Shown piece after piece: positions 22,722-37,891 of a stretch of 39,192 nucleotides of DNA. Positions within the stretch are counted from its first letter, which is position 1, and each line of letters begins with the position of its first letter. The notes under the pieces are model-generated. The model had not been told where the DNA came from, did not search any database, and saw only the letters and a program-made list of their open reading frames with translations. Position numbers and translations under genes: made by a program. The stretch is taken from positions 1 to 39,192 of IMG/VR virus record IMGVR_UViG_3300026488_000006; one strand, written 5' to 3'. Source of the DNA: a virus.

Positions 22722-25700
22722 TCACCTCAGCTCCTTCCTCAACTCCGCAACGAACTTTTCATATATCTCGTTGAACGGCCAGGGGAATTCTGGCTCGTAG
22801 CCAAGACTCTTCAGCACCGTCGCGGGCACCACTGCGACCAAGTAGAACATCGTGGGCTCGCAAAGCCAGCCCTTCTCGTTCTCTCCGAGCTCGTCCTCAA
22901 ACTTGACCTGCACCGTGAAGTGGTTGTAGTCCGCCTTGTGGCAAATCTTTCTGTGCTTTCTGAGGAAAGCCAGCACGGCAGTACTGTAAGGCTCGCCCGC
23001 CTTAGCATTCCTCTTCAGCCATGCACGTATGAGGCTCGCAACCTTCCTATATACCTCGTGGATGCCACCCTCGACCAGAGCACCGCCCGCCTGCTCCACA
23101 GCGTATAGCGCCATCGCTTCGGCGAACGTCAGCGGGGCCCTCTTCTTCCTGTCTATGTACTCGCCGATGATGTTCTCCCCGAGCCACTTCTTGAGAAAGT
23201 CGGCATACATGCTGGCGTCCGAGTGAGTCTTGGCCTTCTCCTTAAGGTAGCGCTCAACGCCATACCACAGCATAGCTGAGAGCTCGCGCGGGTCTTCGAG
23301 GGCCCGACTGAGCCACTCCGGCACCTCGCCGAGGTACTGGTAGATGTTCTTTGGCTTCGATAGTTCTTTCCTCCGCTCGACTATCTCAGTTGCTGAAACC
23401 ACCCCACCCGAGCGCTTCTTCATCTCGACCGGGAGCTCTCGGCGCCCGACCTTTTGGTTGTACACACTTGTGGCCAACTTCGAGGCTTCGATGACGGCGC
23501 TGTCGAACGGGAGCTCGCCCTTGGCCACCATATCCGCGAGAACCCATAGGTCGCGCTCGATGTCGGGGAGCACGAAGTCGAGGTCAATGTTGCGCTTGAG
23601 TAGTCTGCGGTCGAGGCTCTTGAGTAGGCGCTCATAGGTGGCTCTAACTTCCTCTGGCACTTCCGGTGCTCTTCTTGGCTCAATCTCTTCGCTTATGGCC
23701 TCTTCTTCCGGCGTCAACTCCTTCACCTCCCTTTCGGCCCTGCGCTCGGGTTTTGCACCCAGCATTTTCTTCGCTTCCTCGACCTTCGCCTTCGGCAACG
23801 CCTTCCGCGCCTCCTTCATCACGATGGCCATCGCCCTCGGCTGGGTGAGCCTGCCTTCATAGACCTCGCGGGCGAGGCGCTCGATGAGCTCAAGCGGGGG
23901 CTCCGGCGGTCTGACATCGTGGAGCTCGAAGTAGCCTTCCCAGGTGTCGGTCAGCTTGCGCCTGATGAAGCGGAGGTCTTCCTCCTCCTGCGTCGCCATC
24001 TCGGCGACTTCTTCGAGCGGGAGCTCCGTCGCCTCGCCGTGCACCTTGACCGGGACCTCAACCTCCTCAAGCGGGGCCCCCTCTTTCTCCCCGGCAATAG
24101 TTCTCACCATGGACTCCTCCGGGATTTCGGCCTTCTGCTTCTCCTCCAGCTCGGCCTCAAGCTCCGGTAGCTCTTCCGGTGCCGGCGGTAAGTATTCCTT
24201 CGCCAGCTCGCGGACGTGGCGTGCCCATTCTTCCGGCGTCATCCCGAGGCGCCTGGCGAACTCTTCATCATTGGCCAACTGCTCGACCACTTCCTCGGCG
24301 CTGGTGGCACCGTACTGCTCCGGGTGCTCAAGGGCGTCGCGGATGTAGTCGTCAACCTGCCTCAGCAACTCGGCCCGCTCTTCCGTCTCAGTTGGCTTGA
24401 GCTTCCACCTCATAACCTCGGCTCCAGCCCTCGCGAGGAGCGCCTCCTCCTTGTTGGTCGGGAGCGTCCGGGCGTAGTGGACGAGCATATCATAGACCGT
24501 ACGGAACGGGTAGTAGTCGAGCTTCTGCCAGTCATAGTCTTCGACCTCGCTCGGGCTGATTGCGCCGAGGAGGACGAGCGTCTTGGCCACGCGCTCCGGC
24601 GTCGGCTTTAGGCCGAGGTAAAAGCCGAGCTGGGCGCGCTCTATTGAGGGCTTCGGCTTCTCCTCGCGGGCGGGCTTAGGCTCTGGCTGTGCGGACTTGG
24701 CAGTCCCCGGGACTTCTCTCGGCTTTTCCACCTTCTTCTTGCATTTTTCCACCTGTGGTGCCAGGAAGCGCTCAAAGTACGTAGTCACCAGCTCCTGTAA
24801 GTAGTTGGCTTTGACAAAGTTTAGGTGGCCGGGCTTGAGCTCGCGACGGACGACGTTGTAATACCCGCGGGCGTTGTCTGAGATGTGGCACACGCCGTTG
24901 GGGTAGTGTTTCTCGGGGTACAAAAACTCCTCACGGACGCCGAACTCGCGCTCAAGGTGGCGGGCGAAAACGTCCCTCGGAGCTGTCTTGGCGAACTCCT
25001 CGACTTGCTTCGTGAGCTCCGGCGTCACGTAGCGGACGTTGTAGTTTGGCTCATAAGACTCCGATTGTTTTGCTAATGCCTCAAGCTCAGCCTTTACTCT
25101 GTTGAGCGTCTCCCGCACGTCTTCCATCTGCTCCTTGAGCTCCTCGTCGCTCACGCGCGGGTTGCCTATCATCCTCCCAAGCACGCGCACCTTCACCTTT
25201 AGCGAGTTCTTAATGGTCGTGCTTAGCTTCCAAGGGAGCTTTTCCGGCAGGTTCTTGCGGAGCTCTTCGTATTCCTTGATTAGCTTCCTGGCCTCTTCCT
25301 CAAGCGCAAGGCGCTTTTCCGCCTCGGTGCCGGCCTTTGACTTAACGCCCAGCCCGCTCGTCAGGTAGCCGACGTATTTGCAGAAGTCCGGCATATTGGC
25401 GTCCTTCCACGTGAAGTTGGAGAGGTACTGGGCGAGGTAGAGTATCTCGCGGTCGAGCGGGTTGGCGCCGTGCCACTTGGGGATTTTTCCACGCTTTATG
25501 TCGGCACAGGCCATATCGAGCGGTATGAGCACGGCTTTGACCGGCTCGACCTTCCCGGCGTTGTAAAGCTTCCACGCCATAGCCGTGAGCGCCATGAGCT
25601 CCCTAAGCTTCTTCAGGCAGTCGTAGGGGCTCCTGCTGTCCCTACACAACTTATCGTAGTCGGTCCTCAATAGGATGAGCTTTCCGCCCGACAGGCACCA

Positions 25701-27761
25701 CCCAAGCTTTTTGCGCTCTATGAACTCACATATCTCGTCCGCCGAGACCTCCGCACCCATCCTGGCCAGCCTGCTCACCAGCCCCGGTAGCGTGTCCCAG
25801 ATTGAGAAGACCGTTGGGCTCTTGTTTAGCTTCTCGTCAATTATCTTCATTAATTCCTCGCGCCAGTCCACCTTTTTCGGACTCAGCCTCTCCAGAACTT
25901 CCTTTGTGAGCTCACGGGCGAGTGAGTGGACGCAGGGAACGTACTTACGCGGGTCTTTTCCACGACCAACCTCACAAACCCCGTCGAGCTCGATGGTCTC
26001 GCCGTTCACCCTTGCGCTCAACGTGATGTAGGCGCCGTGTAACTGCCCCAACCTCATCGTCAGCTCGAAGTCGCCCACCGCCGTCTTGACGAGCCACGTT
26101 TTTTCAGCCTGCGTGTCGCTGTTCCATTCCTTGACTGCCTTCCAGTCCAACGGGGGCTTCCCGGTCTCGTGGAGCACTACCTCGTACACCCCGTCGTAAA
26201 GCGCCTTCCGAGCATTCTTCCATACCTCGTTCCAGGGCTCCTTGAGCTCCGGCGGGTTAAGGCGGACTTCGCCGAACTTCTTTGAGAGGCCGGGAACGTT
26301 CATAGTGCGCTCGATGATTTCGAGGGCGTCGGCGATGGCGTTATCAGTCAGCTTCCTTACCCACGCCTTCCGCTTCGGCGACCAGCGGAACCCGTGCGCC
26401 TTGAGCTCGCGCCTAACCTCTGCCGGCGGGGCGCTCGTAAAGACCACCCAGAGCCTATCGTCGGCGTGGTTAGCAATGATTTTCCAGCCGTCACCCTTGG
26501 CCAACACCTGAACACCGCTTGTCGTGCCCTTGGCCTGCGCTTCTTTTTTCTCTAACTCCTCAATACGGGCCTTGAGGCGCTTTATTTTTTCACCAACACG
26601 GCGGAGCTCAAAGTCGGGGAAACCAATCCTGCCCAGCTCGTCCGGCTCCGGCCAAAAGAAGAAGTGGCCGGCCTCTGCAACTTTAAATGCGCCAATCTCT
26701 TTAAGCTTCCTCTCCTTCTCTTCGGGCGTGAGCTTCTTTGAGCGGATGATTTTGTTCGCTTCCTTCATTATCTCACGGCGCTTTTCGAGTATCGCCAACT
26801 CTTCCTTTAACCTCTCCAGTTCGCCAACGGCCTTTTTGTTCACGGCGCCCTGCTTCAGAGCTTCCTGCTCCTTCTTCAGCTCCTCTGCCAATTTATCAAG
26901 CTTCTTAAAGGCGTTCTTGATGAACTCGTCGAGCGCTGACAGCTTCCTATGTTCAGTCCGCCAGAGCTTTTCGAGCCGGTCTTGGCTCGGCATCCTCGCC
27001 GGCCCAACCACGTGGGCGCTCGGAATTCTCGCCCTCGTCGTTAAGTAGTCCTCATAAAGCTCAATGTAGCGCTTCGAAAAGTTTTGTATCAACCTCTTCG
27101 CCCGTTCGGGGCCGATGAGCGGGCAGAGCTTCTGCACCTTCTCAGCGTAGCGGTTCAGAGTGCGGAGGTAAGAGAGCTGGTCATACTCCGCGTCTTTCTC
27201 CGGGGTCCACGAATTAATAGAATACGCGCCCTTCGCCCGCTCAAACGGGAACGGTGTAACTTTGACGGGGATTATATCAGCCTTCCCGCCATAGTAACAC
27301 TCGATTTCAAGCGTCCAATTGTCCTGAATAAACGGGCCCCGTTCCCGCTTCGCCCTAACAACTGTCAAGATTTTATCAACGGGGCGCTCAAGCTCTTCTA
27401 CAAGAGAGTTCAATTGCGGGAGCTCGGATTTAAGCCTCTCAATAGCACCCTTGAGCTTCTCAACGTCTTCTGGTGTGAATTTATAGCGCCCAATGTCGGC
27501 CTCTCTCATTAAGTCGCGGTAGCGGTCAATGAGCTTATTCACGGCCACCCAGTCCCTCCACAGCCTCAAGAACTCCTCAACGCGCTCTTTCATCCCGGGC
27601 GGGAACTCCTCGCCGGCCTGTCTAATCTCATCTATATGTTCCTTGAGCCATAGGGCGCGGACGTAGTTCTTCATATCCTTTGTTCCCGAGAACCACCCGT
27701 TTTCGGCCCGGATGTCGTTAAACTCCCAGATGAGCTTTTGGACTTCATCGTACAGGTTCAC
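22722..27761 (-). CDS. Giant multidomain protein (1,679 aa) of unknown function
   Basis: Uninterrupted 5 kb ORF; GTG start at 27761 after RBS GGGGGTGGTGGC; coiled-coil-like and highly acidic/basic segments; no Walker A, no polymerase or primase motif that I could confirm. Confidence 0.7.
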   Translation of the reverse strand: MNLYDEVQKLIWEFNDIRAENGWFSGTKDMKNYVRALWLKEHIDEIRQAGEEFPPGMKERVEEFLRLWRDWVAVNKLIDRYRDLMREADIGRYKFTPEDVEKLKGAIERLKSELPQLNSLVEELERPVDKILTVVRAKRERGPFIQDNWTLEIECYYGGKADIIPVKVTPFPFERAKGAYSINSWTPEKDAEYDQLSYLRTLNRYAEKVQKLCPLIGPERAKRLIQNFSKRYIELYEDYLTTRARIPSAHVVGPARMPSQDRLEKLWRTEHRKLSALDEFIKNAFKKLDKLAEELKKEQEALKQGAVNKKAVGELERLKEELAILEKRREIMKEANKIIRSKKLTPEEKERKLKEIGAFKVAEAGHFFFWPEPDELGRIGFPDFELRRVGEKIKRLKARIEELEKKEAQAKGTTSGVQVLAKGDGWKIIANHADDRLWVVFTSAPPAEVRRELKAHGFRWSPKRKAWVRKLTDNAIADALEIIERTMNVPGLSKKFGEVRLNPPELKEPWNEVWKNARKALYDGVYEVVLHETGKPPLDWKAVKEWNSDTQAEKTWLVKTAVGDFELTMRLGQLHGAYITLSARVNGETIELDGVCEVGRGKDPRKYVPCVHSLARELTKEVLERLSPKKVDWREELMKIIDEKLNKSPTVFSIWDTLPGLVSRLARMGAEVSADEICEFIERKKLGWCLSGGKLILLRTDYDKLCRDSRSPYDCLKKLRELMALTAMAWKLYNAGKVEPVKAVLIPLDMACADIKRGKIPKWHGANPLDREILYLAQYLSNFTWKDANMPDFCKYVGYLTSGLGVKSKAGTEAEKRLALEEEARKLIKEYEELRKNLPEKLPWKLSTTIKNSLKVKVRVLGRMIGNPRVSDEELKEQMEDVRETLNRVKAELEALAKQSESYEPNYNVRYVTPELTKQVEEFAKTAPRDVFARHLEREFGVREEFLYPEKHYPNGVCHISDNARGYYNVVRRELKPGHLNFVKANYLQELVTTYFERFLAPQVEKCKKKVEKPREVPGTAKSAQPEPKPAREEKPKPSIERAQLGFYLGLKPTPERVAKTLVLLGAISPSEVEDYDWQKLDYYPFRTVYDMLVHYARTLPTNKEEALLARAGAEVMRWKLKPTETEERAELLRQVDDYIRDALEHPEQYGATSAEEVVEQLANDEEFARRLGMTPEEWARHVRELAKEYLPPAPEELPELEAELEEKQKAEIPEESMVRTIAGEKEGAPLEEVEVPVKVHGEATELPLEEVAEMATQEEEDLRFIRRKLTDTWEGYFELHDVRPPEPPLELIERLAREVYEGRLTQPRAMAIVMKEARKALPKAKVEEAKKMLGAKPERRAEREVKELTPEEEAISEEIEPRRAPEVPEEVRATYERLLKSLDRRLLKRNIDLDFVLPDIERDLWVLADMVAKGELPFDSAVIEASKLATSVYNQKVGRRELPVEMKKRSGGVVSATEIVERRKELSKPKNIYQYLGEVPEWLSRALEDPRELSAMLWYGVERYLKEKAKTHSDASMYADFLKKWLGENIIGEYIDRKKRAPLTFAEAMALYAVEQAGGALVEGGIHEVYRKVASLIRAWLKRNAKAGEPYSTAVLAFLRKHRKICHKADYNHFTVQVKFEDELGENEKGWLCEPTMFYLVAVVPATVLKSLGYEPEFPWPFNEIYEKFVAELRKELR

Positions 27762-27877: not shown

Positions 27878-28189
27878 GTGGTGATTAGCGTGCCGTCCCA
27901 CCGCTACCACAAAGCCCTTAACCGGCTCGTGCTCGGCGACGACTGCGAGCCCGTGAACCTCATCAAGGACGCACCCTACCGGCTCTTTCCCGGCAAAAAG
28001 CACCGGCAGTACTTCCACGACCGGGCCACGAACTTCTGGCTCGGCATTCTCCTTGGGCCGAAGGCCTTCCTTGCCGGTGAGCTCCACGACTGGCTGGATA
28101 GGGAGTTCATCGAGGACAGGGAAACGGGCCGGCTCGTCCCGCGAGAAAAGTGGATAACTAAGAGGCGCCGGCGAAAGAAGAGGCGTTAG
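27878..28189 (+). CDS. Hypothetical protein (103 aa) with strongly basic C-terminus (KRRRRKKRR)
   Basis: GTG start just downstream of the TATA-like box; stop overlaps the stop of the convergent gene (TTAG). Confidence 0.5.
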   Translation: MVISVPSHRYHKALNRLVLGDDCEPVNLIKDAPYRLFPGKKHRQYFHDRATNFWLGILLGPKAFLAGELHDWLDREFIEDRETGRLVPREKWITKRRRRKKRR

Positions 28190-28428
28190 CCTTCCTTTTT
28201 CCGGGGCCGGATGATGGCCACGCGCCCCGGCAGGAGGAAAACCTCCAGCTCCTCGCCCGGCTCGTAGAAGCCGAACGGGATAAATACTGCGATGCCCCTG
28301 TCGTTGAACTTCGACGCCTTCCGGATGAGCCTCACACCCTCTTTGTCCTTGATTTTGACCTGCCGAGCGAGCTTCGGCTTCGGTCCTTTCACGATTACCT
28401 TGTCCTGACGAACCTCGACCTCCGTCAT
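28186..28428 (-). CDS. Small basic hypothetical protein (80 aa), possible DNA-binding protein
   Basis: Track ORF 28186..28632; ATG at 28428 after RBS GGGGTGGTGGGA; the longer track ORF runs into promoter DNA. Confidence 0.5.
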   Translation of the reverse strand: MTEVEVRQDKVIVKGPKPKLARQVKIKDKEGVRLIRKASKFNDRGIAVFIPFGFYEPGEELEVFLLPGRVAIIRPRKKEG

Positions 28429-28527
28429 TCCCACCACCCCGATGATGTTTTGTTTAAACGAGTATATAAAGGATTCCCCGGCCGAGCTCGGGAGCGAGCC
28501 GGAGCGATTACTACTGCCCGACGTGCC

Positions 28528-28563
28528 GTTGCAAAAAAGTTGTAAAAACGGCAGATTTTTAAG
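28528..28563 (+). promoter_or_regulatory. Conserved early-promoter element (GTTGCAAAAAAGTTGTAAAAACGGCAG plus TATA-like ATTTTTAAGG)
   Basis: 24 of 27 nt identical to 29887-29913; same distance (57-58 nt) from motif end to the start codon. Confidence 0.5.
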
Positions 28564-28611
28564 GTCTAAACTGCTAATATATTTTGAAGAACGCAAAGGT
28601 GGTGGTGAAAA

Positions 28612-28800
28612 ATGGCGAAGGAAAGAATACACCTCGGATGGGCTTCTGTGGACGTGGAGAGGTACGCAGTGAAGGGAAAAGACGGTAGGTGGTATATCAG
28701 ACAGCAGAGCAACCGTGCGGGAGACCCTGGGTACATGATAGCGGTTGTCAGGACGAGGGAAGAAGTCGAAAAGTACAGGATTGGTGAGGTGAGAGCATGA
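28612..28800 (+). CDS. Small hypothetical protein (62 aa)
   Basis: RBS AGGTGGTGGTGA before ATG; first gene of the plus-strand operon. Confidence 0.55.
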   Translation: MAKERIHLGWASVDVERYAVKGKDGRWYIRQQSNRAGDPGYMIAVVRTREEVEKYRIGEVRA

Positions 28801-29102
28801 GCGTCGAGCGCGTGACGGACGCCCTTGTGGATGCCTACCAGCTTCTCGACCTCTCCGAGCGCCTCATCGAGGAGCTCGAAAGCGCCCCGCTCTCCGAGCT
28901 CCCGCGCCTACTTCAGTTTTTGAAAAAGAACATCCGCGACGCGAAGGCGCTGATAAACGACGCCGAGGCCGAGCTCGACAAGACGGTCAGGGAGCTCGAT
29001 GAGGCAGAGGTGAAAGACCTACTCGTTGATATGGAGGTTGAAGAAACCAGGCGCTACGAGGCGCTCGCGAGGGAAGCTGACCGCGCGGGGGTGATGTTAT
29101 GA
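28797..29102 (+). CDS. Hypothetical acidic coiled-coil protein (101 aa)
   Basis: RBS GGTGAGGTGAGAGC; ATGA start/stop overlap. Confidence 0.55.
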   Translation: MSVERVTDALVDAYQLLDLSERLIEELESAPLSELPRLLQFLKKNIRDAKALINDAEAELDKTVRELDEAEVKDLLVDMEVEETRRYEALAREADRAGVML

Positions 29103-29335
29103 AGCTGGTCATAACCATAGCCGACGAGCTGGACGAGTGGTTTTCAAAAATGAGCTTCAAAATCGAGAAGGACGGCAAAACGATACTTAACGACGAGATG
29201 ACCAACTGGGACAACTCAGCGTTTGAGGAATGGTTGGTGGATATGTTTGTGGAGGTTCTGAAGAACTTAAAAGAAGTGGATGAATGGGCCTTTAAGAAGG
29301 CCCTTCAGCGCTTCGTCGGAGGTGATGGACAATGA
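29099..29335 (+). CDS. Hypothetical protein (78 aa)
   Basis: RBS GGGGGTGATG; ATGA overlap. Confidence 0.55.
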   Translation: MKLVITIADELDEWFSKMSFKIEKDGKTILNDEMTNWDNSAFEEWLVDMFVEVLKNLKEVDEWAFKKALQRFVGGDGQ

Positions 29336-29535
29336 AGGTCACGAAAGTTGAGCGCTTTAAGAGGACCTCACGGGTCTGGTTCGACGACGGCACAATCGCG
29401 ATAATCTACGACCTCGGCGGGAAGGACTGGGCGAGCGTCATCACGGCGGACAAAAAAGACATCACGGCGACGCAGAGGGGGCGCGCCTACCTGGCTGAGG
29501 CATACCGCGCCCTAGCGGAGGAGGTGGGCGTATGA
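29332..29535 (+). CDS. Hypothetical protein (67 aa)
   Basis: RBS GGAGGTGATGG; ATGA overlap. Confidence 0.55.
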   Translation: MKVTKVERFKRTSRVWFDDGTIAIIYDLGGKDWASVITADKKDITATQRGRAYLAEAYRALAEEVGV

Positions 29536-29687
29536 GGTGGGTGGTCATCTCCCGCGACCGCGAGCTCAAGGTCGAGACAGCGACGAACCAAAAGGAGGCA
29601 TTATTTAGGCAGAAGCTCCACCGCAACGCCCTCGCCCTACCAGTCCGCGAGGTCCCAACTCTTATCCACCTCCTCCAGCACCTTTGA
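29532..29687 (+). CDS. Small hypothetical protein (51 aa)
   Basis: Not in the ORF track. RBS GGAGGTGGG before ATG; ATGA overlap with upstream stop; followed by an oligo-T tract. Confidence 0.4.
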   Translation: MRWVVISRDRELKVETATNQKEALFRQKLHRNALALPVREVPTLIHLLQHL

Positions 29688-29688
29688 A

Positions 29689-29747
29689 CCTTCTTTTTTT
29701 CGCCCGCTTTATAACCCGGTTATAATTTCTCACAACCGGGTTTTGCC
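29689..29747 (+). terminator. Terminator-like element: oligo-T plus palindrome TTATAACCCGGTTATAA and AACCGGGTTTTGCC
   Basis: T9 run immediately after the operon's last stop; about 80 percent identical to 30326-30382. Confidence 0.45.
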
Positions 29748-29886
29748 TGGGGGGCTACATATATACTACATATAATTCCACGCCCCAAGTTTCACCACGA
29801 TAACTTAGTTTTAGCAGTTGATAACTCGGTTATGTCGCGTGAGTTTCTGACGCGACTCCGAGGCGCTCTCAGACGCGAGAACTTTG

Positions 29887-29932
29887 TTGCAAAAAAGTTT
29901 CAAAAACGGAAGGTTTATATATGTGTTTAAAC
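29887..29932 (+). promoter_or_regulatory. Conserved early-promoter element, second copy (GTTGCAAAAAAGTTTCAAAAACGGAAG plus TATA-like GTTTATATATG and GTTTAAAC)
   Basis: See 28528-28563. Confidence 0.5.
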
Positions 29933-29969
29933 ATAAGAGAGAACGAAGAATGTGATAGAGGTGGTCGTG

Positions 29970-30323
29970 ATGGAGAAGGTGAGAATCATACCGCACAGGT
30001 TTGAGGACAAGGAAGAGTACATCAACGCCCTCGTCGGGACCTGGAAGCGCAACTGGGAAATCTTCAAGAAGGAGCACCCGCGCGTCGCTAAGCGCTTTGA
30101 GGAGGCAGTCGAGAAGTACGGCGGTATGGATACTATGCTTAGGAAGTTCGCAGAAGACATAGCTTTTGACAAGCGGAGGACGAGGGTTCAGGTTCCCCTC
30201 ACATGCAGAAGATACTTATACAATGACTACGGTATGAGCATCAAGTTCTACGACGACGGCGACATCGTGTATGCGAGGGGCTCAATCAGCTCAAGCGTCC
30301 GCGACATCCTGGGTGTTTGCTGA
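29970..30323 (+). CDS. Hypothetical protein (about 117 aa)
   Basis: Track ORF 29952..30323; ATG at 29970 after RBS GAGGTGG. Confidence 0.55.
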   Translation: MEKVRIIPHRFEDKEEYINALVGTWKRNWEIFKKEHPRVAKRFEEAVEKYGGMDTMLRKFAEDIAFDKRRTRVQVPLTCRRYLYNDYGMSIKFYDDGDIVYARGSISSSVRDILGVC

Positions 30324-30325
30324 CC

Positions 30326-30382
30326 CTTCTTTTTTCGCCCGCCTTATAACTCGGTTATAGCTTTTCTTAACTCGGTTTTGCC
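30326..30382 (+). terminator. Terminator-like element, second copy: oligo-T plus palindrome TTATAACTCGGTTATAG and AACTCGGTTTTGCC
   Basis: Immediately after the stop of 29970..30323; homologous to 29689-29747. Confidence 0.45.
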
Positions 30383-30512
30383 AAGGAAGGACACGTAACC
30401 CTCACCCCCAACTCTATGTTTAAACTCCCGCAACCCCGACCTTTACAGATGCAAAACCTTAAATACCCCTTTTGCAAAAATCTTATACGAACAACGTCAA
30501 GGGGGTGGCACT

Positions 30513-31598
30513 GTGGACGACGAGGAAAAGCGCGAGAAGGCCGGGGAAAACCGCCCCGACGACTTCAGCGAGCTCGACGACCTTTTAGAAGCCCTTATGG
30601 GCGCCGAGGAGGTGGCAGAAGACAGCCAAAGCGAGGAACCACCCGACGACGCCAAAGAACCACCCGCCGAACCCAAACACAGAAAGTACGCCCCAAACCC
30701 GTACAGCAAAATCAAAGACATCCCCGAAGACTTCCTCACGTTCCTCCTTGAGACGGACGCGAAGTGGGCAAAGCGCAAGCTGTGGCGCGGAATCATCAGA
30801 AGCATCTACGAGAACCCGCGCGCGCACTCGACAGACATTGCCAAGCTCCTCGACACGACGCCCTCCACCGTCATGCGCACCGCCGAGCGATATAGGGCTA
30901 TGTGGAACGAGCTTCGCGAGGACTACGAGGAGTGGAAGCGGAAGCTTGAGGAAGGCGTCCCGGGCGAGTTAGAGTCGAAGCTCCCACCAACCAAAGCCCC
31001 TTCCCCACAGCCGGCCCCGGAGCCGGCGCCGAAGAAGCGTGGGGGCTCGAAGAGCTCTACGGGTGGCGAGAAAGAAGAAAAAATCCCGCAGAAGCTCTAC
31101 GAGTTCACCAAGAGCACGACGACCTTCAAAGAGATTGATAAGACGCTTAGCGAAGTGCTCGGTGCTCAGTTCCACGATACGGCGGTTAGAAAGGAAGTTT
31201 ACGCCCGGCTCGGCGAACTGCTGATTTTCAGCCTCCTCCAGCTCGGTGTGGTCGAGCGTGATAAAATAGTCGCCTACTCTGAACAGCTCTCGACCGACCC
31301 GGACAGGCTCTACGAGTACGTCAAAAACCAGCTCGACGCCGTTCTCCGCTTAACCGACGCCGAGACGCTCCAGCGCGTCTGGGTCGAGCTAACCGCGCTC
31401 AGGCGCCAGGTCAGGGCACTCGAAGCGACCGCCGACATGCTCAGCGACACGCTAAAAGAGTACGAGGACGCCATCCGGTTCCTCATGGGTCTTCTCACGC
31501 GCGACCAGCTCGAAAAGTTCTCCGCGTATGTGTTTATGAAGGAGTTTATGAAGCAGTACGCGCCCCTGCAGGGCGCCGTTCCTGGAGGTGGTAGATGA
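30513..31598 (+). CDS. Hypothetical protein (361 aa) with acidic N-terminus and a helix-turn-helix-like segment; possible transcription regulator
   Basis: RBS GGGGGTGG before GTG; segment RAHSTDIAKLLDTTPSTVMRTAERYRAMWNE resembles an HTH; C-terminal codons form the next gene's RBS. Confidence 0.55.
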   Translation: MDDEEKREKAGENRPDDFSELDDLLEALMGAEEVAEDSQSEEPPDDAKEPPAEPKHRKYAPNPYSKIKDIPEDFLTFLLETDAKWAKRKLWRGIIRSIYENPRAHSTDIAKLLDTTPSTVMRTAERYRAMWNELREDYEEWKRKLEEGVPGELESKLPPTKAPSPQPAPEPAPKKRGGSKSSTGGEKEEKIPQKLYEFTKSTTTFKEIDKTLSEVLGAQFHDTAVRKEVYARLGELLIFSLLQLGVVERDKIVAYSEQLSTDPDRLYEYVKNQLDAVLRLTDAETLQRVWVELTALRRQVRALEATADMLSDTLKEYEDAIRFLMGLLTRDQLEKFSAYVFMKEFMKQYAPLQGAVPGGGR

Positions 31599-32779
31599 TG
31601 GAAGCCGTGCAGGTCGAAAAGACCGCCGAGGAGGCGCCGACCGAGGTGCCGAAGCTCGAAGAGTTTCTCCCCGTCGGAGAAGCCCAGCCCGCCGAGGAAA
31701 ACGCCCCAGAGCTCCCGAAAGAGGTGCAGAACCAGATTGCGACGACAATCGTCCAGGGCCAGATGGCCGGCCTAAGCGAGGAGGAGATAAAGGAGAAAAT
31801 CAAGGAGCGCTACGGCCTAAGCGACGAGGAAGCTGAGCTCACGATGCAGATGATAATGAAGTACCTCGACCGCTCCCAGAGACAGGAATACGAGCTCAAG
31901 AAGACCGCACTCGGAATGATGCCGGCGCTCGCGGAGACTATGGCGCAGAGCCAGAACCCGCTCGCCCCGCTGATTATGCAACGCCTCATCGAGATGGCCG
32001 GATTCAAGGAGGAGAAAGACGACTTCGTGAAGGACATCGTGGAGGCGAAAAAGCAACTCTACAAGGTCAAGATGATAAGCGAGGTGCTCAAGGACGACGA
32101 GGGCAAAAAGTCCGGCTCGTTCGACGCGCTCATCCTTGAGATGATACGTCAGATGGAGCGGGAGAAGGCCGAGGCCCAAAAGATGCTCTACCAGCTCCTC
32201 CTTGAGGAGCGGAACAGGAAGGACAGTGGGGAGACCGAGGCGCTAAAAGAGGCACTCGTGAAGTTCATAGACGCGATAGACCAGCGCCTCGAAATGATGA
32301 TGGAGATGATACAGGAACAGAAGAGCACGCCGGTCAACGGGGGCCCGCGCTACAAGGACCCGCTTGAGGAGCTTTTGGAGCACCAGCAGAAGCTCAACCA
32401 GCTCCTTGAGACCCTCGAAAAGGCCGGGCTCGTGAAGCGCAACGATGACGAGTCCAGCCTCCTTGAGGCTCAGCTAAAGCTCAAGGAGTTCGAGCTCAAG
32501 CAGAAGGAAGTCGAGGCGAAGCAAATATTCTACTCGAAGCTCGCCGAGGCGCTGAGCAACCCACAGACGCTCCGGGTCATCTTCGACGGGCTCAGAGGCA
32601 TCTTCGCCGGGCTCCTCGGTAGGGCGCCGAGCCCACAGACCTTCAACAACGCCCTCGCTCAAGCACCTGTCCAGGCGCCGGCCCCCACGCCGGCCCCCGT
32701 CCCCAAGCCAGAACCGCCGGCGGACATTCCGAGCCTTGAGGAGTTCGTCCAGCAGGCCGGGGGTGAGGGTGGTGGCTGA
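31595..32779 (+). CDS. Coiled-coil rich hypothetical protein (394 aa)
   Basis: RBS GGAGGTGGT; ATGA overlap; E/K/Q/L-rich heptad-like sequence; Pro/Ala-rich region near the C-terminus. Confidence 0.6.
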   Translation: MMEAVQVEKTAEEAPTEVPKLEEFLPVGEAQPAEENAPELPKEVQNQIATTIVQGQMAGLSEEEIKEKIKERYGLSDEEAELTMQMIMKYLDRSQRQEYELKKTALGMMPALAETMAQSQNPLAPLIMQRLIEMAGFKEEKDDFVKDIVEAKKQLYKVKMISEVLKDDEGKKSGSFDALILEMIRQMEREKAEAQKMLYQLLLEERNRKDSGETEALKEALVKFIDAIDQRLEMMMEMIQEQKSTPVNGGPRYKDPLEELLEHQQKLNQLLETLEKAGLVKRNDDESSLLEAQLKLKEFELKQKEVEAKQIFYSKLAEALSNPQTLRVIFDGLRGIFAGLLGRAPSPQTFNNALAQAPVQAPAPTPAPVPKPEPPADIPSLEEFVQQAGGEGGG

Positions 32780-32987
32780 ACCGAACCCCAAGACAGTCGC
32801 AGTCTTCCGCTGGCTCGCCCAGACGCTCCGGGCGGGCTACAACAACCCCGCCGTGCTTTTGAAGGCGAAAGATGAGATAAAGAAAAACGAAAAGGTGATT
32901 GAGGGGGCGGTGAGGGATGCCATTCGGCCCGAATTTGAGGAATACGTCGAGCTCGTTAAGTCCCTCCTCGGCGGAGGCTCAGCTTGA
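32772..32987 (+). CDS. Small hypothetical protein (about 71 aa)
   Basis: Track ORF 32736..32987 begins at a TTG; an in-frame GTG at 32769/32772 follows RBS GGTGAGGGTG and is the more likely start. Confidence 0.45.
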   Translation: MAEPNPKTVAVFRWLAQTLRAGYNNPAVLLKAKDEIKKNEKVIEGAVRDAIRPEFEEYVELVKSLLGGGSA

Positions 32988-33306
32988 CAAAGCGCTTGAG
33001 GAGTACGACCGACTCTTTCAGGAGGAGTTCGAGCGGAAGAAGGCGATTTGGCTCAAGATGACGCAGGAACAGCGCGACCAGTACACCCGCACCGTGCTCG
33101 GCCGGATACTCAAGAAGGCCAAGGAAAACCCGCTTGAAGGACTAAAAGCCTTTGCCCAGCTCATAGGCTCGCCAGAGGGTGTTTTGGTGTGGGCCAACAT
33201 CTGGAAGCCGGAGTACTGGCCTTACGTGGCGGAAGTTACCGGGGAGGCCTACAAGCTGATGGTGAAGTTCGCCGTGCTCAGTGAGGTCGGGGGTGGGCAG
33301 AAGTGA
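32917..33306 (+). CDS. Hypothetical protein (up to 129 aa), start uncertain
   Basis: Overlaps the previous ORF by about 70 nt in the +1 frame; alternative start at ATG 33058 has a weak RBS; end is well defined (GTGA overlap with the next gene). Confidence 0.4.
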   Translation: MPFGPNLRNTSSSLSPSSAEAQLDKALEEYDRLFQEEFERKKAIWLKMTQEQRDQYTRTVLGRILKKAKENPLEGLKAFAQLIGSPEGVLVWANIWKPEYWPYVAEVTGEAYKLMVKFAVLSEVGGGQK

Positions 33307-33713
33307 GCCTCGAACTCATGCGCCGATGGGTCGCCTCGCTCCCGCCGGCGGAGCGGTCGCTCCCACTCCTCCACGTGGGCGAGGCCTTCTACACACCATT
33401 GCAAGCGCTCCGAGAAGTTGAAAAAGGTACAACGATTGGTGAAAAACTACAACAGCTCGTAGAGCAAGGGCGCTTTGGGACGGACTTAAACGCCCTTGCA
33501 AAGGCCCGCCTCCAGCTCCTCCTTGAGCGGGCGAAGGGCTACGAGATAGCCTCGCTCAGCGGGATAAGCATTCCCACTGACAAGCTCGCCAAGCTCGTGG
33601 CTCAAGGCGACCTATCAAATCCACTCATCCAAGAGCTCGCGGAGGCCGACCTCCTTCTCGCCCAACAGGCGCTCAAGCTCGGTAAAAAGCTCGCTGGAGG
33701 TGGTGGGAAATGA
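33303..33713 (+). CDS. Hypothetical protein (136 aa)
   Basis: RBS GGGGGTGGGCAG before GTG; GTGA overlap; Gly-rich C-terminal codons form the next RBS. Confidence 0.55.
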   Translation: MSLELMRRWVASLPPAERSLPLLHVGEAFYTPLQALREVEKGTTIGEKLQQLVEQGRFGTDLNALAKARLQLLLERAKGYEIASLSGISIPTDKLAKLVAQGDLSNPLIQELAEADLLLAQQALKLGKKLAGGGGK

Positions 33714-33997
33714 CGCCGGCTGAGCTCCTCGCTCAGGTTGAGGCGCTCCTCGACGCGGGGCGCTACAACGAGGCCCTTCGGCTCCTCGCCTCGGATAGGG
33801 CACTCTACCAGCGCGTCACTCAGGGCGTCATCAGGGCCCTTGAGAGCGACCCCCATGGCATCATCACGGACATAAACGGCAACGTGTGGCGCACGAGCGA
33901 CCTAATCCGCTACGTCAGAGCCGGCCACTGGTTCGGCCCGCTGTTCAACCTGCTCCGCTCCGAGGTCGAGCTCCTCCGGCGCCAGCTCGGGGGGTGA
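33710..33997 (+). CDS. Hypothetical protein (95 aa)
   Basis: RBS GGAGGTGGTGGG; ATGA overlap. Confidence 0.55.
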   Translation: MTPAELLAQVEALLDAGRYNEALRLLASDRALYQRVTQGVIRALESDPHGIITDINGNVWRTSDLIRYVRAGHWFGPLFNLLRSEVELLRRQLGG

Positions 33998-34767
33998 CGC
34001 CCTTGCTTTACATTTTGCCGACCACGCACGGTGTTGACGTGCCGAGCACGATAATGAAGAACGTCGCGCCCCAGATTGACGAGAGCCCGATAATCCTCTG
34101 GGACGGCGAAGCGACCGCCGAGAACGCCAGGAAGGCCATCCTTGGGCACAACCCGCCGTACATTTTCACGACCGGCCATGGGCTCCCGTGCGCCACCACG
34201 CTCCAGGACTTACAGCCGTTCATCAGCCTCGCAGAGCCCCAGATGAGCCCCTACTGTAAGGCCGAGCGCAACCTCGACATCGTGAAGGGTCGCGTCTGGC
34301 ACGTCCACTCGTGCTGGTGCGGGCTCCAACTCGCACAGGAGATGGTCAAAAGGGGCGCCTGGGCGGTCTTCGCCCACGACAAGGAGTTTTTATTCCTTAT
34401 GCCCAAGACGGGCAAGATTGACATCATTACCGCCACGCCGTTTCTCGCAGAGTTCACCGTTGACAGTGCAATGCTCAGCGGAATGACCGCCGGCGAGGCG
34501 CAGAAGGCAAGGGAAAAGGCCTATGACCATTGGCTCGACTACTTCCTCAAGGGCGAAGGGCAGAAGCTCGACCCGGCCCCGCTCGTGGCGCGCATCGTCC
34601 TCGCCGACAAGATGATTAGCAAGCTCTACGGCGACCCGACAGCAACTGTAACAAAGCCCGGACCAAGAAAGACCTTCCAGCTCGGCCTCCCTCTCGATAG
34701 GCCAGTGGGCGGTTCCGCCATTTGGCTCGCGCTCCCCGTGGCACTCCTGATGTTTGCAAGGGGGTGA
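33994..34767 (+). CDS. Hypothetical Cys/His-containing protein (about 257 aa) with C-terminal hydrophobic anchor
   Basis: Track ORF 33886..34767; in-frame GTG at 33994 overlaps the upstream stop (GTGA); conserved-looking His/Cys residues (HGLPCATT, HSCWCG); C-terminal AIWLALPVALLMF. Confidence 0.5.
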   Translation: MTPLLYILPTTHGVDVPSTIMKNVAPQIDESPIILWDGEATAENARKAILGHNPPYIFTTGHGLPCATTLQDLQPFISLAEPQMSPYCKAERNLDIVKGRVWHVHSCWCGLQLAQEMVKRGAWAVFAHDKEFLFLMPKTGKIDIITATPFLAEFTVDSAMLSGMTAGEAQKAREKAYDHWLDYFLKGEGQKLDPAPLVARIVLADKMISKLYGDPTATVTKPGPRKTFQLGLPLDRPVGGSAIWLALPVALLMFARG

Positions 34768-34771
34768 GCCT

Positions 34772-34939
34772 ATGGCGAGGCGCGACACCACCGCAATCCT
34801 CAAACGGCTAAAAAAGCGCCTCGACCGGGCGAGAAAAGCCCTCCTCGTTGAGGACAGCGCCACGGCGCTGGAGCACGTGGATTGGGCAATCCTTGAGCTC
34901 GAAGAGCTCGCCGAAGAAAGTGCGGAGGTGGGAGAGTGA
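34772..34939 (+). CDS. Small hypothetical protein (about 55 aa)
   Basis: Track ORF 34754..34939; ATG at 34772 after RBS GGGGGTGAG. Confidence 0.45.
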   Translation: MARRDTTAILKRLKKRLDRARKALLVEDSATALEHVDWAILELEELAEESAEVGE

Positions 34940-35295
34940 TACCGCCGAGCTGGGCCTACGGGATAAGTACGGGAAGCCTGCTAACGATGCTACTCGGCGT
35001 CCTCCTCGGGGCGACGCTCGGGACCATCATCGGCACCGAGATTGCTTACCGGCGCACCGAGCGGTGGCTACGAAAGCTCCTAACAGACAAAGAGTTTCAG
35101 AACCTCGCCGTCGGCTGGCTCAAGCGGACGGCTCAGCAGTTCGAGAACGAGTACGTGAAACCGAAAATCGAAAGCGAGGAGTTCCGCGAGCTCGTCAGGA
35201 AGGCGAAAGAACAGGCAATGCAGGCGCTCCTCGGGCCGGGCGAGCCCCCAACCGACGTGCCGAGCCTTGATGACTTCGTAGGGGGTGAGGGGTGA
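34936..35295 (+). CDS. Membrane protein (119 aa) with N-terminal TM helix
   Basis: RBS GGAGGTGGGAGA before GTG; hydrophobic N-terminus LLTMLLGVLLGATLGTIIG. Confidence 0.55.
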   Translation: MIPPSWAYGISTGSLLTMLLGVLLGATLGTIIGTEIAYRRTERWLRKLLTDKEFQNLAVGWLKRTAQQFENEYVKPKIESEEFRELVRKAKEQAMQALLGPGEPPTDVPSLDDFVGGEG

Positions 35296-35507
35296 TGGAC
35301 GTTGCCTTGTTAGCCGAGGTGTTGACGGCCATCCTGGCCGTCGTGAGCTTCCTCCTTGGAGCGAAGTGGAGGAAGGCAAAAGCCGTGCTCCGCGACCTCG
35401 CGAAGGCCCTCGAAGACACGTACCAAGCCCTCGAAGACGACAAGCTGACAAAGGAAGAGCTCAAGCAGTTGATAAAAGACTGGAAAAAAGTGCTGGAGAA
35501 CGTTTAG
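35295..35507 (+). CDS. Small membrane protein (about 70 aa), TM helix plus coiled coil
   Basis: ATG at 35295 after RBS GGGGGTGAGGGGTG; last gene of the plus operon. Confidence 0.5.
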   Translation: MDVALLAEVLTAILAVVSFLLGAKWRKAKAVLRDLAKALEDTYQALEDDKLTKEELKQLIKDWKKVLENV

Positions 35508-35788
35508 GCCCAGCCCCCGCCGTTTGGGCCGGGCCACTCCGGGCGGAGCCGTACTGGCTCCACCGCCCCTCTTTTTAGGAGCACGCCCCAGACGCCAGGG
35601 GGCATAGCGTTGGCCGTCACGAGGTCGCCCTTTCTGAACGGCCCGCGCGGGCCGTCCGGCGTCATAATGCCTTCTGGAAAGTCCATGAGGAACCGGTAGG
35701 CCCACTGCGGGGCCGGGCGCTCAGTTCTCGCCGTCCTGGCCTTCGGCCTCGCCTTCACCCAGCCGAGGAGGCTCGCCTGTGCCACCAC
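35504..35788 (-). CDS. Hypothetical protein (94 aa), last gene of the origin-spanning minus operon
   Basis: GTG start just after the upstream stop; its stop overlaps the stop of the convergent plus-strand gene. Confidence 0.45.
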   Translation of the reverse strand: MVAQASLLGWVKARPKARTARTERPAPQWAYRFLMDFPEGIMTPDGPRGPFRKGDLVTANAMPPGVWGVLLKRGAVEPVRLRPEWPGPNGGGWA

Positions 35789-35791
35789 CCA

Positions 35792-35956
35792 TCACCCCCT
35801 CTCTCCGCTCTGCTCGCCGGGCGTGAAAAGAACGAAAGGCCGAAAGTCGGGCGCCGGGAAGGTGATTACTGCCCCGCAGTGCGGGCAGTGAACCGGGCGG
35901 TGGATGTCCTCGACCTCGAAGGGCTGTCCGCAGTAAGGACAACGGACGCGCATCAT
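35792..35956 (-). CDS. Zinc-ribbon protein (about 54 aa)
   Basis: Track ORF 35792..36001; ATG at 35956 after RBS GGAGGGGGT; two CxxC pairs (CPYCG ... CPHCG). Confidence 0.5.
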   Translation of the reverse strand: MMRVRCPYCGQPFEVEDIHRPVHCPHCGAVITFPAPDFRPFVLFTPGEQSGERG

Positions 35957-36249
35957 TTTGCCGACCCCCTCCACCTCATCATCCTCCGTAGCTTTCTCCA
36001 AACAGGGATTGTTTCTCTACTCATATAGTTTCTTTTAGCGAGCCACTCTTTGAACTTCTCGTCACACTCCTCGTCTTCATCAAGGAAGTCGAGTAGTTGA
36101 AGGACTTCCTTATATCTGCCGTACTTCCGCCACACGGCCCACAAGACTTGAGCTCCGAGCCATACCATGAATGCCACAAGCGCCCACGCAAGCGCCGTTA
36201 GCACGGCGAAGCCGGTGTAGGTCCAGATAGTTTCAATGCTCACGGCCAT
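35953..36249 (-). CDS. Small membrane protein (about 98 aa)
   Basis: Track ORF 35953..36324; ATG at 36249 inside a 19-bp sequence also found at the dpdA-like start; hydrophobic helices. Confidence 0.5.
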   Translation of the reverse strand: MAVSIETIWTYTGFAVLTALAWALVAFMVWLGAQVLWAVWRKYGRYKEVLQLLDFLDEDEECDEKFKEWLAKRNYMSRETIPVWRKLRRMMRWRGSAK

Positions 36250-36320
36250 CACGCTCCTTTTTTCTTTCAGAGTGCACATAGTGGAACCACCATATGTAAT
36301 ACTCCTCCGTGATTCCCATT

Positions 36321-37130
36321 TCACACATTCGAAATCACCTCAGTAAGGCTTTTCTGACGGGAGTTTTGGAACCCATCTAATAACCGAACCCAATGGAGTA
36401 CTCTCTGTCGTATCTGCATCCAGATAGGCTTAGAGTTCTTCACGCGGTCAATACCATACCTATATGCCAAACTGTCCGCCGAGTAAAGAGCTTCTCTCAC
36501 GTCAGGATACCTGAGCACTCCAAACTTTACTCCAAAAGCGTGCAACTTAACCCTCCTTGGTGTCGCTTCTCTTATTGCGAGTATGTATCTCCGTATTTGC
36601 GGTTCTTGCCCGCGCCGGCACATTGTGCCGAGGCCGAGAAGTTCAGTCAGGAGACCATGCTCCTTCATATAATCGAGCATCCAGAGATAGTCGTCAAGCG
36701 CCCACCCCTGCAATACTGCCACAAAGTGCTTCTTAAGTTCAGGATACTGGTCGTCAATTAGATTCTGAATTACAATCTGGTTTTCTATCGTTTTCATCTG
36801 ATTTTCTCGAACCGTGCGACCCCACTTCTTGCGGACTTCCGGTTCGCACGGATAATCCCTATTCGCAAAGAGGACATTCTCAAAGCGTCCAGAATTGAGC
36901 TGACGAAGGACAAACTCAAGGTAGCGCTCGTGTGGGTCCGGGTATTCTTGCATGCGGTAAAAAAAGCTGAAGCCTCCGCTGTCAATGAACAACCAGCTTG
37001 TGTTCCTAGGTGGGGTTCTAACTCTGGAAGCATAGTTAATCATAACATTGAACTTGCGCGGAGCGAGGCTTTCAAATGCCTTTTTTGCTGAACCATCCCC
37101 CACACCAAAAAAGAAACTAAACACGGCCAT
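36321..37130 (-). CDS. TGT-family transglycosylase, DpdA-like (7-deazaguanine DNA transglycosylase candidate)
   Basis: Motif WLFIDSGGFSFF matches the tRNA-guanine transglycosylase active-site motif (E. coli Tgt ILTDSGGFQVF); downstream blocks align loosely with TGT (VAVLQG, LLGLGTM, YSADSL); no CxCxxC...H zinc site. Track ORF 36321..37271 starts at a TTG; ATG at 37130 follows RBS AGGAAGGAGCGTG. Confidence 0.7.
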   Translation of the reverse strand: MAVFSFFFGVGDGSAKKAFESLAPRKFNVMINYASRVRTPPRNTSWLFIDSGGFSFFYRMQEYPDPHERYLEFVLRQLNSGRFENVLFANRDYPCEPEVRKKWGRTVRENQMKTIENQIVIQNLIDDQYPELKKHFVAVLQGWALDDYLWMLDYMKEHGLLTELLGLGTMCRRGQEPQIRRYILAIREATPRRVKLHAFGVKFGVLRYPDVREALYSADSLAYRYGIDRVKNSKPIWMQIRQRVLHWVRLLDGFQNSRQKSLTEVISNV

Positions 37131-37296
37131 CACGCTCCTTCCTAAGTGTTGCAATAAAGCACTCGTCGAAAAACTCACAAGCTTCACAGAGCGAGTCGCC
37201 CTGAAAGTCTCCAAAGCAAGGCGGTAGTTCCTCAGCGCCCTCATTGTCGAATTCGCCCCAAACCTCTCCAAAAACCGTTATGAGAACCTTAGCCAC
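37117..37296 (-). CDS. Small Cys-rich protein (59 aa), possible metal-binding
   Basis: Not in the ORF track. GTG start after RBS GGGGGTGACGGGGC, directly after the upstream stop; C-x11-C-x2-C-x5-C; overlaps the dpdA-like start by 14 nt in another frame. Confidence 0.35.
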   Translation of the reverse strand: MAKVLITVFGEVWGEFDNEGAEELPPCFGDFQGDSLCEACEFFDECFIATLRKERDGRV

Positions 37297-37310
37297 GCCC
37301 CGTCACCCCC

Positions 37311-37547
37311 TTAAACTTCCACCTCGGCCTTTCGGCCGGCGGGCTCGCCGAGGCGGACGACGGCGTAGCCATGCTTTGCAAGGGCCTTAATGATTTTGAG
37401 AGCCTCGGCGTCGTCGCTGAGTACGGCGAGCAAGATGTCCTTGCCGTCCGGCAGGCGCCCGTGGAGCTCGCCACAGCAGTACTCGACGTGATGGAGCTCG
37501 TAAACGCCGTAGGTGTTGTCGAGGCCGTCAATCACGGCGACCCTCAT
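37311..37547 (-). CDS. Hypothetical protein (78 aa) with HHVEYCCGELHG motif
   Basis: ORF tiled in operon next to the dpdA-like gene. Confidence 0.5.
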   Translation of the reverse strand: MRVAVIDGLDNTYGVYELHHVEYCCGELHGRLPDGKDILLAVLSDDAEALKIIKALAKHGYAVVRLGEPAGRKAEVEV

Positions 37548-37577
37548 GCTTCCACCTCCAAAAATTTAAGAAAGGGT

Positions 37578-37880: not shown

Positions 37881-37891
37881 ACACCCCCGAC

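Follow-up and report, generated by a model that had tools for sequence, protein, structure and literature searches.

The window analysed here is the whole stretch of 39,192 nucleotides (nt) given as positions 1 to 39,192 of IMG/VR virus record IMGVR_UViG_3300026488_000006. It is an assembled circle, in which positions 1-127 are an exact repeat of positions 39066-39192, and subtracting this 127-bp terminal direct repeat gives a true length of 39,065 bp. The element is a circular, virus-like entity of 39,065 bp associated with Thermococcus, and a protein-guided scan of a genome collection found identical 1.1-kb pieces of it in a Thermococcus sp. metagenome-assembled genome (two contigs of 1.1 kb). 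Minus-strand genes occupy 138 to 27761 and 35953 to 39159, and a plus-strand block of 7.7 kb (27878-35578) separates these two groups. This block contains the locus of interest, two terminator-like cassettes with palindromes between 29,689 and 30,382, and is ordered as promoter P1, five small overlapping open reading frames (ORFs), cassette 1, a control region that includes a repeat unit termed B, promoter P2, ORF117, cassette 2, promoter P3 and an operon encoding a helix-turn-helix (HTH) protein of 361 amino acids (aa), whose gene is followed by that of a 394-aa coiled-coil protein (Table 1). For comparison we used the contigs carrying 15 homologues of the HTH protein, hereafter the relatives (L-numbered loci). 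These contigs derive from metagenomes of hydrothermal vents, among them assemblies of samples named SPET22-1, REYS20-1 and JOHN19-1, and one relative is listed as a viral genome in IMG/VR. Protein-guided scans of IMG/VR returned nothing with single proteins and only one 33.8-kb contig with the family alignment.

A preliminary description of this DNA, made from its letters alone, had put the identity of the two cassettes at about 80%, and this figure stands: 29688-29747 and 30323-30382 are 80% identical in an ungapped comparison over 60 nt (82.5% over 63 nt by BLAST). It had also assigned the palindrome TTATAAC-N3-GTTATAA to both cassettes. In cassette 1 the palindrome is indeed a perfect 7-3-7, but in cassette 2 it is a perfect 6-3-6 whose seventh pair is mismatched. 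The third copy of the palindrome is present as claimed, within unit B. A YCG centre attributed to the second element of cassette 1 had to be abandoned, as the centre there is CGG, the complement of CCG. What that description overlooked, and a repeat search of the window revealed, is that the actual repeat is a 35-nt double site present in three copies starting at 29711, 29800 and 30346 (units A, B and C). Each unit pairs two AAC-N3-GTT cores at a distance of exactly 21 bp, of which one belongs to a full palindrome of the form (T/G)ATAAC-N3-GTTAT and the other is weaker (AAC-N3-GTTTT). The order of the strong and the weak dyad in unit B is the reverse of that in units A and C.

Table 1. Coordinates of the features of the cassette locus and of selected genes of the element (positions in the window)
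Feature	Position	Strand	Description
First mini-operon	28612-29687	+	five overlapping small ORFs
Last ORF of first mini-operon	29532-29687	+	51 aa; TGA 7 nt before the T-run; homologous small ORFs in L006, L010 and L021
Cassette 1		+	TGA (29685-29687), ACCTTC, T7 (29694-29700), CGCCCGC, T, TTATAACCCGGTTATAA (29709-29725), ATTTCTCAC, AACCGGGTTTTGCC
Terminator 1 (putative)	29688-29707	+	ACCTTC-TTTTTTT-CGCCCGC; family-conserved oligo-T module
Unit A	29709-29747	+	7-3-7 palindrome TTATAACCCGGTTATAA (29709-29725) and weaker dyad CACAACCGGGTTTTGCC (29731-29747); cores 21 bp apart (29713/29734)
AT-rich block	29754-29777		GCTACATATATACTACATATAATT, 24 nt, between units A and B; (TA)n-rich equivalents in the long intergenic region of relatives
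Unit B	29799-29834	+	weak dyad GATAACTTAGTTTTAGC, then palindrome GATAACTCGGTTATG (29820-29834); cores 21 bp apart (29802/29823); without terminator
Inverted repeat	29835-29857		TCGCGTGA-GTTTC-TGACGCGA; family-conserved
Promoter P2	29886-29921	+	family-wide module GTTGCAAAAAAGTTTCAAAAACGGAAGGTTTATATA; its copy at 28528-28563 is P1 of the first mini-operon
ORF117	29970-30323	+	single-gene second unit; fold of 3 helices and 3 strands
Cassette 2		+	TGA (30321-30323), CCCTTC, T6 (30330-30335), CGCCCGC, C, TTATAACTCGGTTATAG (30344-30360), CTTTTCTT, AACTCGGTTTTGCC
Terminator 2 (putative)	30324-30342	+	CCCTTC-TTTTTT-CGCCCGC
Unit C	30344-30382	+	TTATAACTCGGTTATAG (30344-30360) and CTTAACTCGGTTTTGCC (30366-30382); cores 21 bp apart (30348/30369)
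TATA box of P3	30458-30465	+	CTTAAATA (TTAAATA), for the HTH-protein operon; conserved column in the alignment of relatives
HTH protein (candidate cognate protein)	30513-31598	+	361 aa; HTH domain (residues 66-147) variable between lineages, disordered linker, conserved coiled-coil C-terminal domain
ORF with primase domain	22722-27761	-	1679 aa; phrog_19458 at residues 206-482
UvrD-like helicase, N6/N4 DNA methyltransferase and DpdA homologue	among 36321-37271, 4336-5586 and 138-1802	-	family matches (DpdA homologue: PF23859, 1.9e-20)

The arrangement of these sites is confined to the locus. Exact matches to ATAAC-N3-GTTAT occur in the 39 kb only at 29711, 29821 and 30346, all within 650 bp. 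With up to one mismatch allowed, four matches were found against 0.24 expected, and none of 100 shuffles reached four. With up to two mismatches the count was 12 against 4.8 expected; the excess of six was taken as exactly the six sites of this region, and the matches in the rest of the element are at chance level, with no further credible sites. The lone AAC-N3-GTT core occurs in the window about as often as expected (10 times, against 8.0 +/- 2.9), and it is the pairing at 21 bp that stands out, with three pairs observed and 0.007 expected from Markov simulations. The pattern of cassettes and double sites is therefore non-random, far beyond chance. The two cassettes differ from each other in centres and spacers and not in half-sites, and the eight versions of the site available from two strains share the half-sites (A)TAAC and GTT(A/T)T around centres that read CCG, CGG, TTA, TCG, TCA or CCA. 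Thus the units display what is looked for in operators, namely dyad symmetry with conserved half-sites and a free centre, clustering in non-coding DNA and helical phasing. The dyad does not match the SurR site GTT-N3-AAC: the order of the half-sites is the opposite here (AAC-N3-GTT), and the spacing from GTT to AAC is 12 and not 3.

The T-runs of the cassettes each begin 7 nt after a TGA stop codon. They lie downstream of the last stop codon of co-directional units and precede the next promoter modules (29886 and about 30458). On the plus strand of the plus-strand block, runs of six or more T are found in the two cassettes only. Runs of five or more occur just past a stop codon at 28189, in both cassettes and at the end of the block (35572); the further ones are one inside a TATA box and two inside ORFs. 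In the relatives, a stop codon followed by CCYTTC, T6-8 and (C)GCCC is seen 3' of small ORFs in L001, L003, L004, L006, L010, L011 and L027, and there the module is mostly followed by TTTTGCAAAA, which is a perfect palindrome and forms the family promoter's upstream box. At 90 C a tract of T5-T6 is enough for efficient termination by Pyrococcus RNA polymerase, no hairpin being required, and the efficiency depends in part on the sequence just downstream (PMC2253867). With T6-7 runs 7 nt past stop codons, a family-wide module and the demonstrated sufficiency of T5-T6 (PMC2253867), it is well supported at the level of sequence that these tracts correspond to Thermococcales intrinsic terminators, as had been proposed for them from the start.

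The palindrome, on the other hand, hardly qualifies as an RNA element. A 7-3-7 hairpin in the transcript could in principle serve as a bacterial-type terminator or as an RNA stability element, and in cassette 2 the palindrome is followed by GCTTTTCTT. However, its predicted folding energies at 37 C are -2.2 and -2.6 kcal/mol, no better than those of many shuffles and too weak for the hairpin to exist at Thermococcus growth temperatures. A rho-independent terminator can be set aside on the further grounds that the palindrome is AT-rich and lies 3' of the T-run. A generic terminator scan returned nothing at the cassettes, and Pyrococcus RNA polymerase does not need a hairpin (PMC2253867). This explanation is already largely refuted, and we regard it as scarcely credible.

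Among the relatives, ATAAC-N3-GTTAT is restricted to the element itself, its near-identical twin (L007) and a sister strain (L021/L022), and is absent from all others that were fetched. Scans for the exact double site yielded three chance matches in IMG/VR, all in unrelated contigs of 33-48% guanine plus cytosine (G+C), and in the JGI metagenomes only the near-identical twin contig Ga0256837_1009711 besides chance matches. The sister strain, whose ORF117 is 93% identical to that of the window, provides the sole informative strain pair. Within the 189-bp gap between ORF117 and the HTH gene, none of the 36 non-central positions of unit C differs in L021, compared with 10 of 58 (17%) in the adjacent spacer (Fisher one-sided p=0.006, for this one strain pair). 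The centre of unit C itself changes from TCG to CCA, and the promoter and 5' untranslated region (5'UTR) in the gap are unchanged. Further upstream, 29728-29905, which includes unit B, is identical in L021.

More distant relatives carry different repeats in a comparable setting. In all relatives a long intergenic region holds phased repeats specific to the lineage and an AT block, and in nearly all of them also a conserved inverted repeat. L008 and L027 have TTGTTCC-N6-GGAACAA in tandem at a distance of 33 bp, with constant half-sites and varying spacers. In L027 this palindrome lies directly 3' of the terminator TTATTTTTTTGCGCCCC and again in a second intergenic region, and two GGAACAA copies 21 bp apart straddle the start codon of the HTH gene. 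L010 contains four copies of TCTATATAGA with spacings of 51, 51 and 21 bp, in an array that starts right past a terminator and flanks the conserved inverted repeat. Three copies of ACTGCRAA at 21-bp steps are found in L006, and TCTGAAAGCTTTTCTGTG occurs two to three times upstream of the HTH gene in L001. A palindrome of the lineage's own directly past a terminator is thus seen in two lineages, L027 and L010. The earlier suggestion that the palindrome is a dimeric DNA-binding site gains indirect support from these palindromes of other lineages, together with the clustering and 21-bp spacing, the half-sites of unit C in L021 and the weakness of the RNA hairpin.

The most likely binder is the HTH/coiled-coil protein encoded at 30513-31598, immediately downstream of cassette 2. 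In its family of 16 members, HTH_24 is matched by 6 (best 3e-8), MarR by 4 and an AsnC-type HTH by 3; the match of the 361-aa protein itself to HTH_24 is weak. AlphaFold predicts it confidently only in residues 66-147, as a helical HTH (predicted local distance difference test score 82-87), after which come a disordered linker and long helices. In Foldseek searches 44 residues align to archaeal Lrp/AsnC HTH domains at a root-mean-square deviation of about 1 A, with an E-value that is not significant for the whole chain, and the structural matches of the domain comprise Lrp/AsnC, KorA and sigma region 4 HTH domains. Mean pairwise identity in the family is 26% in the HTH segment versus 57% in the C-terminal domain. 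The recognition-helix region differs between lineages, and strains that share the HTH share the motif. This variation fits a lineage-specific pair of protein and site, which is nevertheless unproven since everything else co-diverges as well. ORF117 is an improbable binder: its fold matches neither any solved structure nor a DNA-binding fold, and it has homologues in unrelated low-GC contigs that lack the palindrome.

Taken together, we favor the interpretation that each cassette combines an intrinsic terminator with a cooperative double operator for a dimeric protein encoded by the element, placed at the 3' boundaries of two successive early units, and we give it a probability of roughly 0.55. 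The architecture is real and non-random, and its function is probably regulatory and of a familiar kind, in an archaeal element that is otherwise uncharacterised. From the architecture, its statistics, the conservation of the half-sites and the analogous designs in relatives, all of which are directly seen, we infer the binding of a protein, its identity and an effect on termination or on a promoter. In the cassettes the 35-bp double operator would consist of the strong palindrome TTATAAC-N3-GTTATA and the weaker AAC-N3-GTT dyad two helical turns downstream. Two dimers of a sequence-specific protein of the element would bind each unit cooperatively, as double-stranded DNA, and, once bound, the protein would govern ORF117 and the HTH-protein operon, the two units downstream, with a specificity particular to the lineage. 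If the binder is the HTH/coiled-coil protein, it would regulate its own gene. The distance from the first T of the T-run to the near edge of the palindrome is 14-15 bp, so that a bound protein could also stall RNA polymerase on the T-tract and thereby reinforce termination. The coupling of termination to regulation of the next promoter, which the preliminary description had raised, is conjectural; against it stand the absence of a terminator at unit B, the distance of the units from promoter cores, the degraded palindrome A1 of the sister strain and the alternative role of the sites as origin iterons, all taken up below. In a stronger and unlikely version of the scheme, the double palindromes would be conditional terminator boosters, such that the insulation between early cassettes depends on occupancy by the protein, and the pair of protein and site defines heteroimmunity or incompatibility groups in a family of Thermococcales viruses.

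Several observations weigh against the operator-terminator interpretation. None of the units reaches a B recognition element (BRE), a TATA box or a start site: the distance to the TATA box downstream is 114 bp from the start of unit B, 112 bp from that of unit C and 200 bp for unit A. Archaeal repressors usually act at the BRE/TATA region or the start site, and the analogous motif of L008/L027 does extend over the HTH gene start. A similar dyad past the terminator upstream of the HTH gene is shared by L003, L011 and L010 even though their HTH domains differ, and the association of HTH variants with motifs is confounded by how closely the strains are related overall. The confinement of the palindrome to the element and its close strain variants deprives it of deep comparative support. 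An AT-rich block lies between units A and B, beside a conserved inverted repeat, and such a layout is equally typical of a replication origin. Finally, palindrome A1 of cassette 1 carries 6 substitutions within 12 bp in L021 (29716-29727 versus L021 4747-4758), in about 400 bp that are otherwise near-identical (p=7e-7). The change (TTATAACTCAGTTGTGG) turns TTATAAC-CCG-GTTATAA into TTATAAC-TCA-GTTGTGG, by which the right half-site is lost and GTTGTG-N6-CACAAC is created. This cluster could be a conversion patch or a change or re-specification of the operator. As A1 is degraded in the sister strain, not every site can be indispensable.

Alternatively, the cassettes might have no separate function and simply be paralogous terminator-containing segments, spread by duplication or gene conversion as small ORFs were shuffled, with the palindromes as passengers. 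Small ORFs that are not homologous are clearly shuffled in the family among promoter, 5'UTR and terminator modules that stay conserved, the cassettes are 60-nt direct repeats around one such small-ORF module, and the substitution cluster at A1 resembles a conversion patch. Yet unit B displays the 35-nt double-site design and the 21-bp spacing with none of the terminator flank, half-sites are kept while centres and flanks vary, both between cassettes and between strains, and independent lineages carry different palindromes in the same arrangement. We consider a passenger origin of the palindromes very unlikely.

The surroundings of unit B bear on a further alternative. This unit sits in a 260-bp intergenic region, between the AT-rich block and the inverted repeat. 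The latter (CGCGTGA-N5-TCACGCG) occurs in the same intergenic region in the window and in L007, L001, L003, L004, L005, L008, L010 and L011, and in truncated form in L009. In the form (G)TCGCGTGA-N5-TCACGCGA(C) it was located at L001 1879, L003 2107 (minus strand), L004 3886, L008 876, L010 3996 and L011 4286. As RNA the repeat at 29835-29857 folds at -13.6 kcal/mol (z -3.0), and it could be the binding site of a conserved protein or an origin element. Units A and B might be iterons around an AT-rich unwinding element, and the initiator gene would be autoregulated through unit C. The HTH protein would act as a lineage-specific origin binder whose conserved C-terminal domain recruits replication proteins such as the giant primase-domain protein and the UvrD-like helicase, and the terminators would serve only to keep transcription from running into the origin. 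The AT block, inverted repeat and lineage-specific phased repeats of the relatives would suit such an origin, as would the helical phase of the sites (21, 33 or 51 bp), the recurrence of the motif at the HTH gene itself in L008/L027 and the combination of a variable DNA-binding domain with a conserved C-terminal domain, which is the logic of Rep-iteron incompatibility groups. However, the AT block spans just 24 nt, the region is embedded in a strongly promoter-rich early gene block, the HTH protein shows no detectable similarity to known initiators, and GC skew, which tracks the coding strand, does not discriminate an origin. A repeat cluster at 3700-4240 is moreover a stronger origin candidate. 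An origin at the cassette locus is rather unlikely, yet it is the leading alternative.

That cluster is a non-coding stretch of about 540 bp with about 12 GAAGACAC-type motifs in both orientations. It includes a 74-nt direct repeat (3824-3897 and 3963-4036, 88%), a 51-nt inverted repeat (3863-3913 and 4155-4205, 96%) and an exact 19-nt repeat (4172 and 4215), and is the element's strongest candidate for an origin, a centromere or a packaging site. For the cassette locus, a role as centromere-like partition sites or packaging recognition sites, bound by the HTH protein and unrelated to transcription control, seems quite improbable to us. Phased palindromes do precede an operon that opens with an HTH protein followed by a 394-aa coiled-coil protein, and their specificity varies between lineages. 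But no ParA/ParM-type ATPase or terminase was detected next to the HTH gene, and there are three units only, placed exactly at transcription-unit boundaries.

Several other features of the control region and of its counterparts in relatives were recorded. The AT block at 29754-29777 contains two copies of CTACATATA 11 nt apart; its TACATA resembles the EarA-type motif of euryarchaeal archaellum promoters, presumably a coincidence of (TA)-rich sequence. An 8-bp palindrome, GTTTAAAC, occurs five times in the window (3761, 28452, 29925, 30418 and 38415) and may be a second operator. Two of its copies lie 4 nt downstream of TTTATATA boxes (28470 on the minus strand, 29914 on the plus strand), and the copy at 30418 falls within 30411-30425, a block kept between strains while its flanks vary. 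A promoter-like module of the form GTTGCAAAAAAGTT(G/T)(T/C)AAAAACGG-N4-5-TATA is present at 28528 and 29886. The corresponding family-wide module, TTTGCAAAAA-N2-TTNCAAAAACGNAAGGTTTATATA, is found in the window at 28528-28563 and 29886-29921 and in L001, L003, L004, L006, L008, L010, L011 and L027. Promoter, 5'UTR and ribosome-binding site (GGAGGTGGTCGTGATG) are conserved in relatives ahead of non-homologous small ORFs, indicating that the expression modules are conserved and the cargo is shuffled. Between L003 (1807-2256) and L011 (4138-4571) the entire long intergenic region has opposite orientations with respect to the genes around it. Inverted copies of the promoter CGAAAGGTTTATATA border it, suggesting that recombination between the promoter copies inverted it. 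An AbrB-like nature, considered for the 80-aa product of 28189-28428 (minus strand), was not supported.

The remainder of the element offers few points of reference. Its G+C content is 55-62%, with dips to 0.46 at 15001-16000 and to 0.49-0.52 at 36001-38000 against about 0.59 elsewhere. At these dips lie a 496-aa ORF lacking any family match and the DpdA region, and the two stretches may be recently acquired modules. The DpdA homologue suggests that the element's DNA carries a 7-deazaguanine modification. Apart from the genes with family matches in Table 1, nearly all ORFs lack a Pfam or PHROG match. A BLASTN search of plasmid and phage collections with 27.8-31.7 kb found nothing, Rfam detected no known non-coding RNA in the whole window at gathering scores or in 28.3-30.7 kb at E-values up to 5, and the window has no tRNA genes, hence nothing that points to an att site. 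Thermococcales viruses mined from vent metagenomes of this kind are the subject of a 2026 preprint that catalogues 620 viral genomes (PMC12934983); the words promoter, terminator and intergenic are absent from its main text, and promoter is absent from one of its supplementary files.

Gene regulation in the viruses and plasmids of Thermococcales is almost unknown, and this locus provides a compact map in which a family-wide promoter, a family-wide oligo-T terminator and lineage-specific palindromes stand together with a protein of variable HTH. Should the pairing of protein and palindrome be real, it would provide Thermococcus and Pyrococcus genetics with defined terminators and with orthogonal, hyperthermophilic pairs of repressor and operator, and would offer a handle on superinfection immunity or incompatibility in Thermococcales elements. 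Among known systems, iteron-type origins with an autoregulated Rep, as in plasmids pPS10, F and R6K, have phased repeats specific to incompatibility groups, an AT-rich block and a site near a winged-helix/HTH gene. The locus resembles them in its phased, lineage-specific repeats beside an AT block and in the related site near the HTH gene, but its repeats are palindromes and not direct repeats, the AT block is short, Rep similarity is lacking and a better origin cluster lies elsewhere. The double sites would behave similarly to phage and plasmid multi-operator systems such as lambda OL/OR and KorA-OA. Unlike those, they lie clear of the promoters, and two of the three directly adjoin a terminator; homology to CI or KorA is lacking at the sequence level, and protein binding is a prediction.

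The terminator part of the cassettes closely parallels the oligo-dT terminators of Thermococcales, exemplified by that of the P. furiosus histone gene hpyA1 (Spitalny & Thomm 2008, PMC2253867), in having a T5-T7 run on the non-template strand just past the stop codon and no stable hairpin. It differs in that the T-run here belongs to an extended conserved module, CCYTTC-Tn-(C)GCCC, with a palindromic double site following at a fixed distance. Cluster A mycobacteriophage stoperators likewise bind a repressor in the small gaps between genes, at gene ends; the bound repressor halts RNA polymerase during elongation, and the differing specificities of stoperators define lineages, the immunity groups (PMC9283540, PMC6550527). 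They are asymmetric 13-bp sites, orientation-dependent, bound by monomers and spread in dozens over the genome (PMC9283540, PMC6550527), whereas here three palindromic double sites lie within 0.7 kb and are combined with an intrinsic terminator. With only these three sites and chance-level matches elsewhere, the units are not stoperators as such. Were the palindromes nonetheless to act as terminator boosters, they would represent an archaeal, palindromic counterpart of the mycobacteriophage stoperators.

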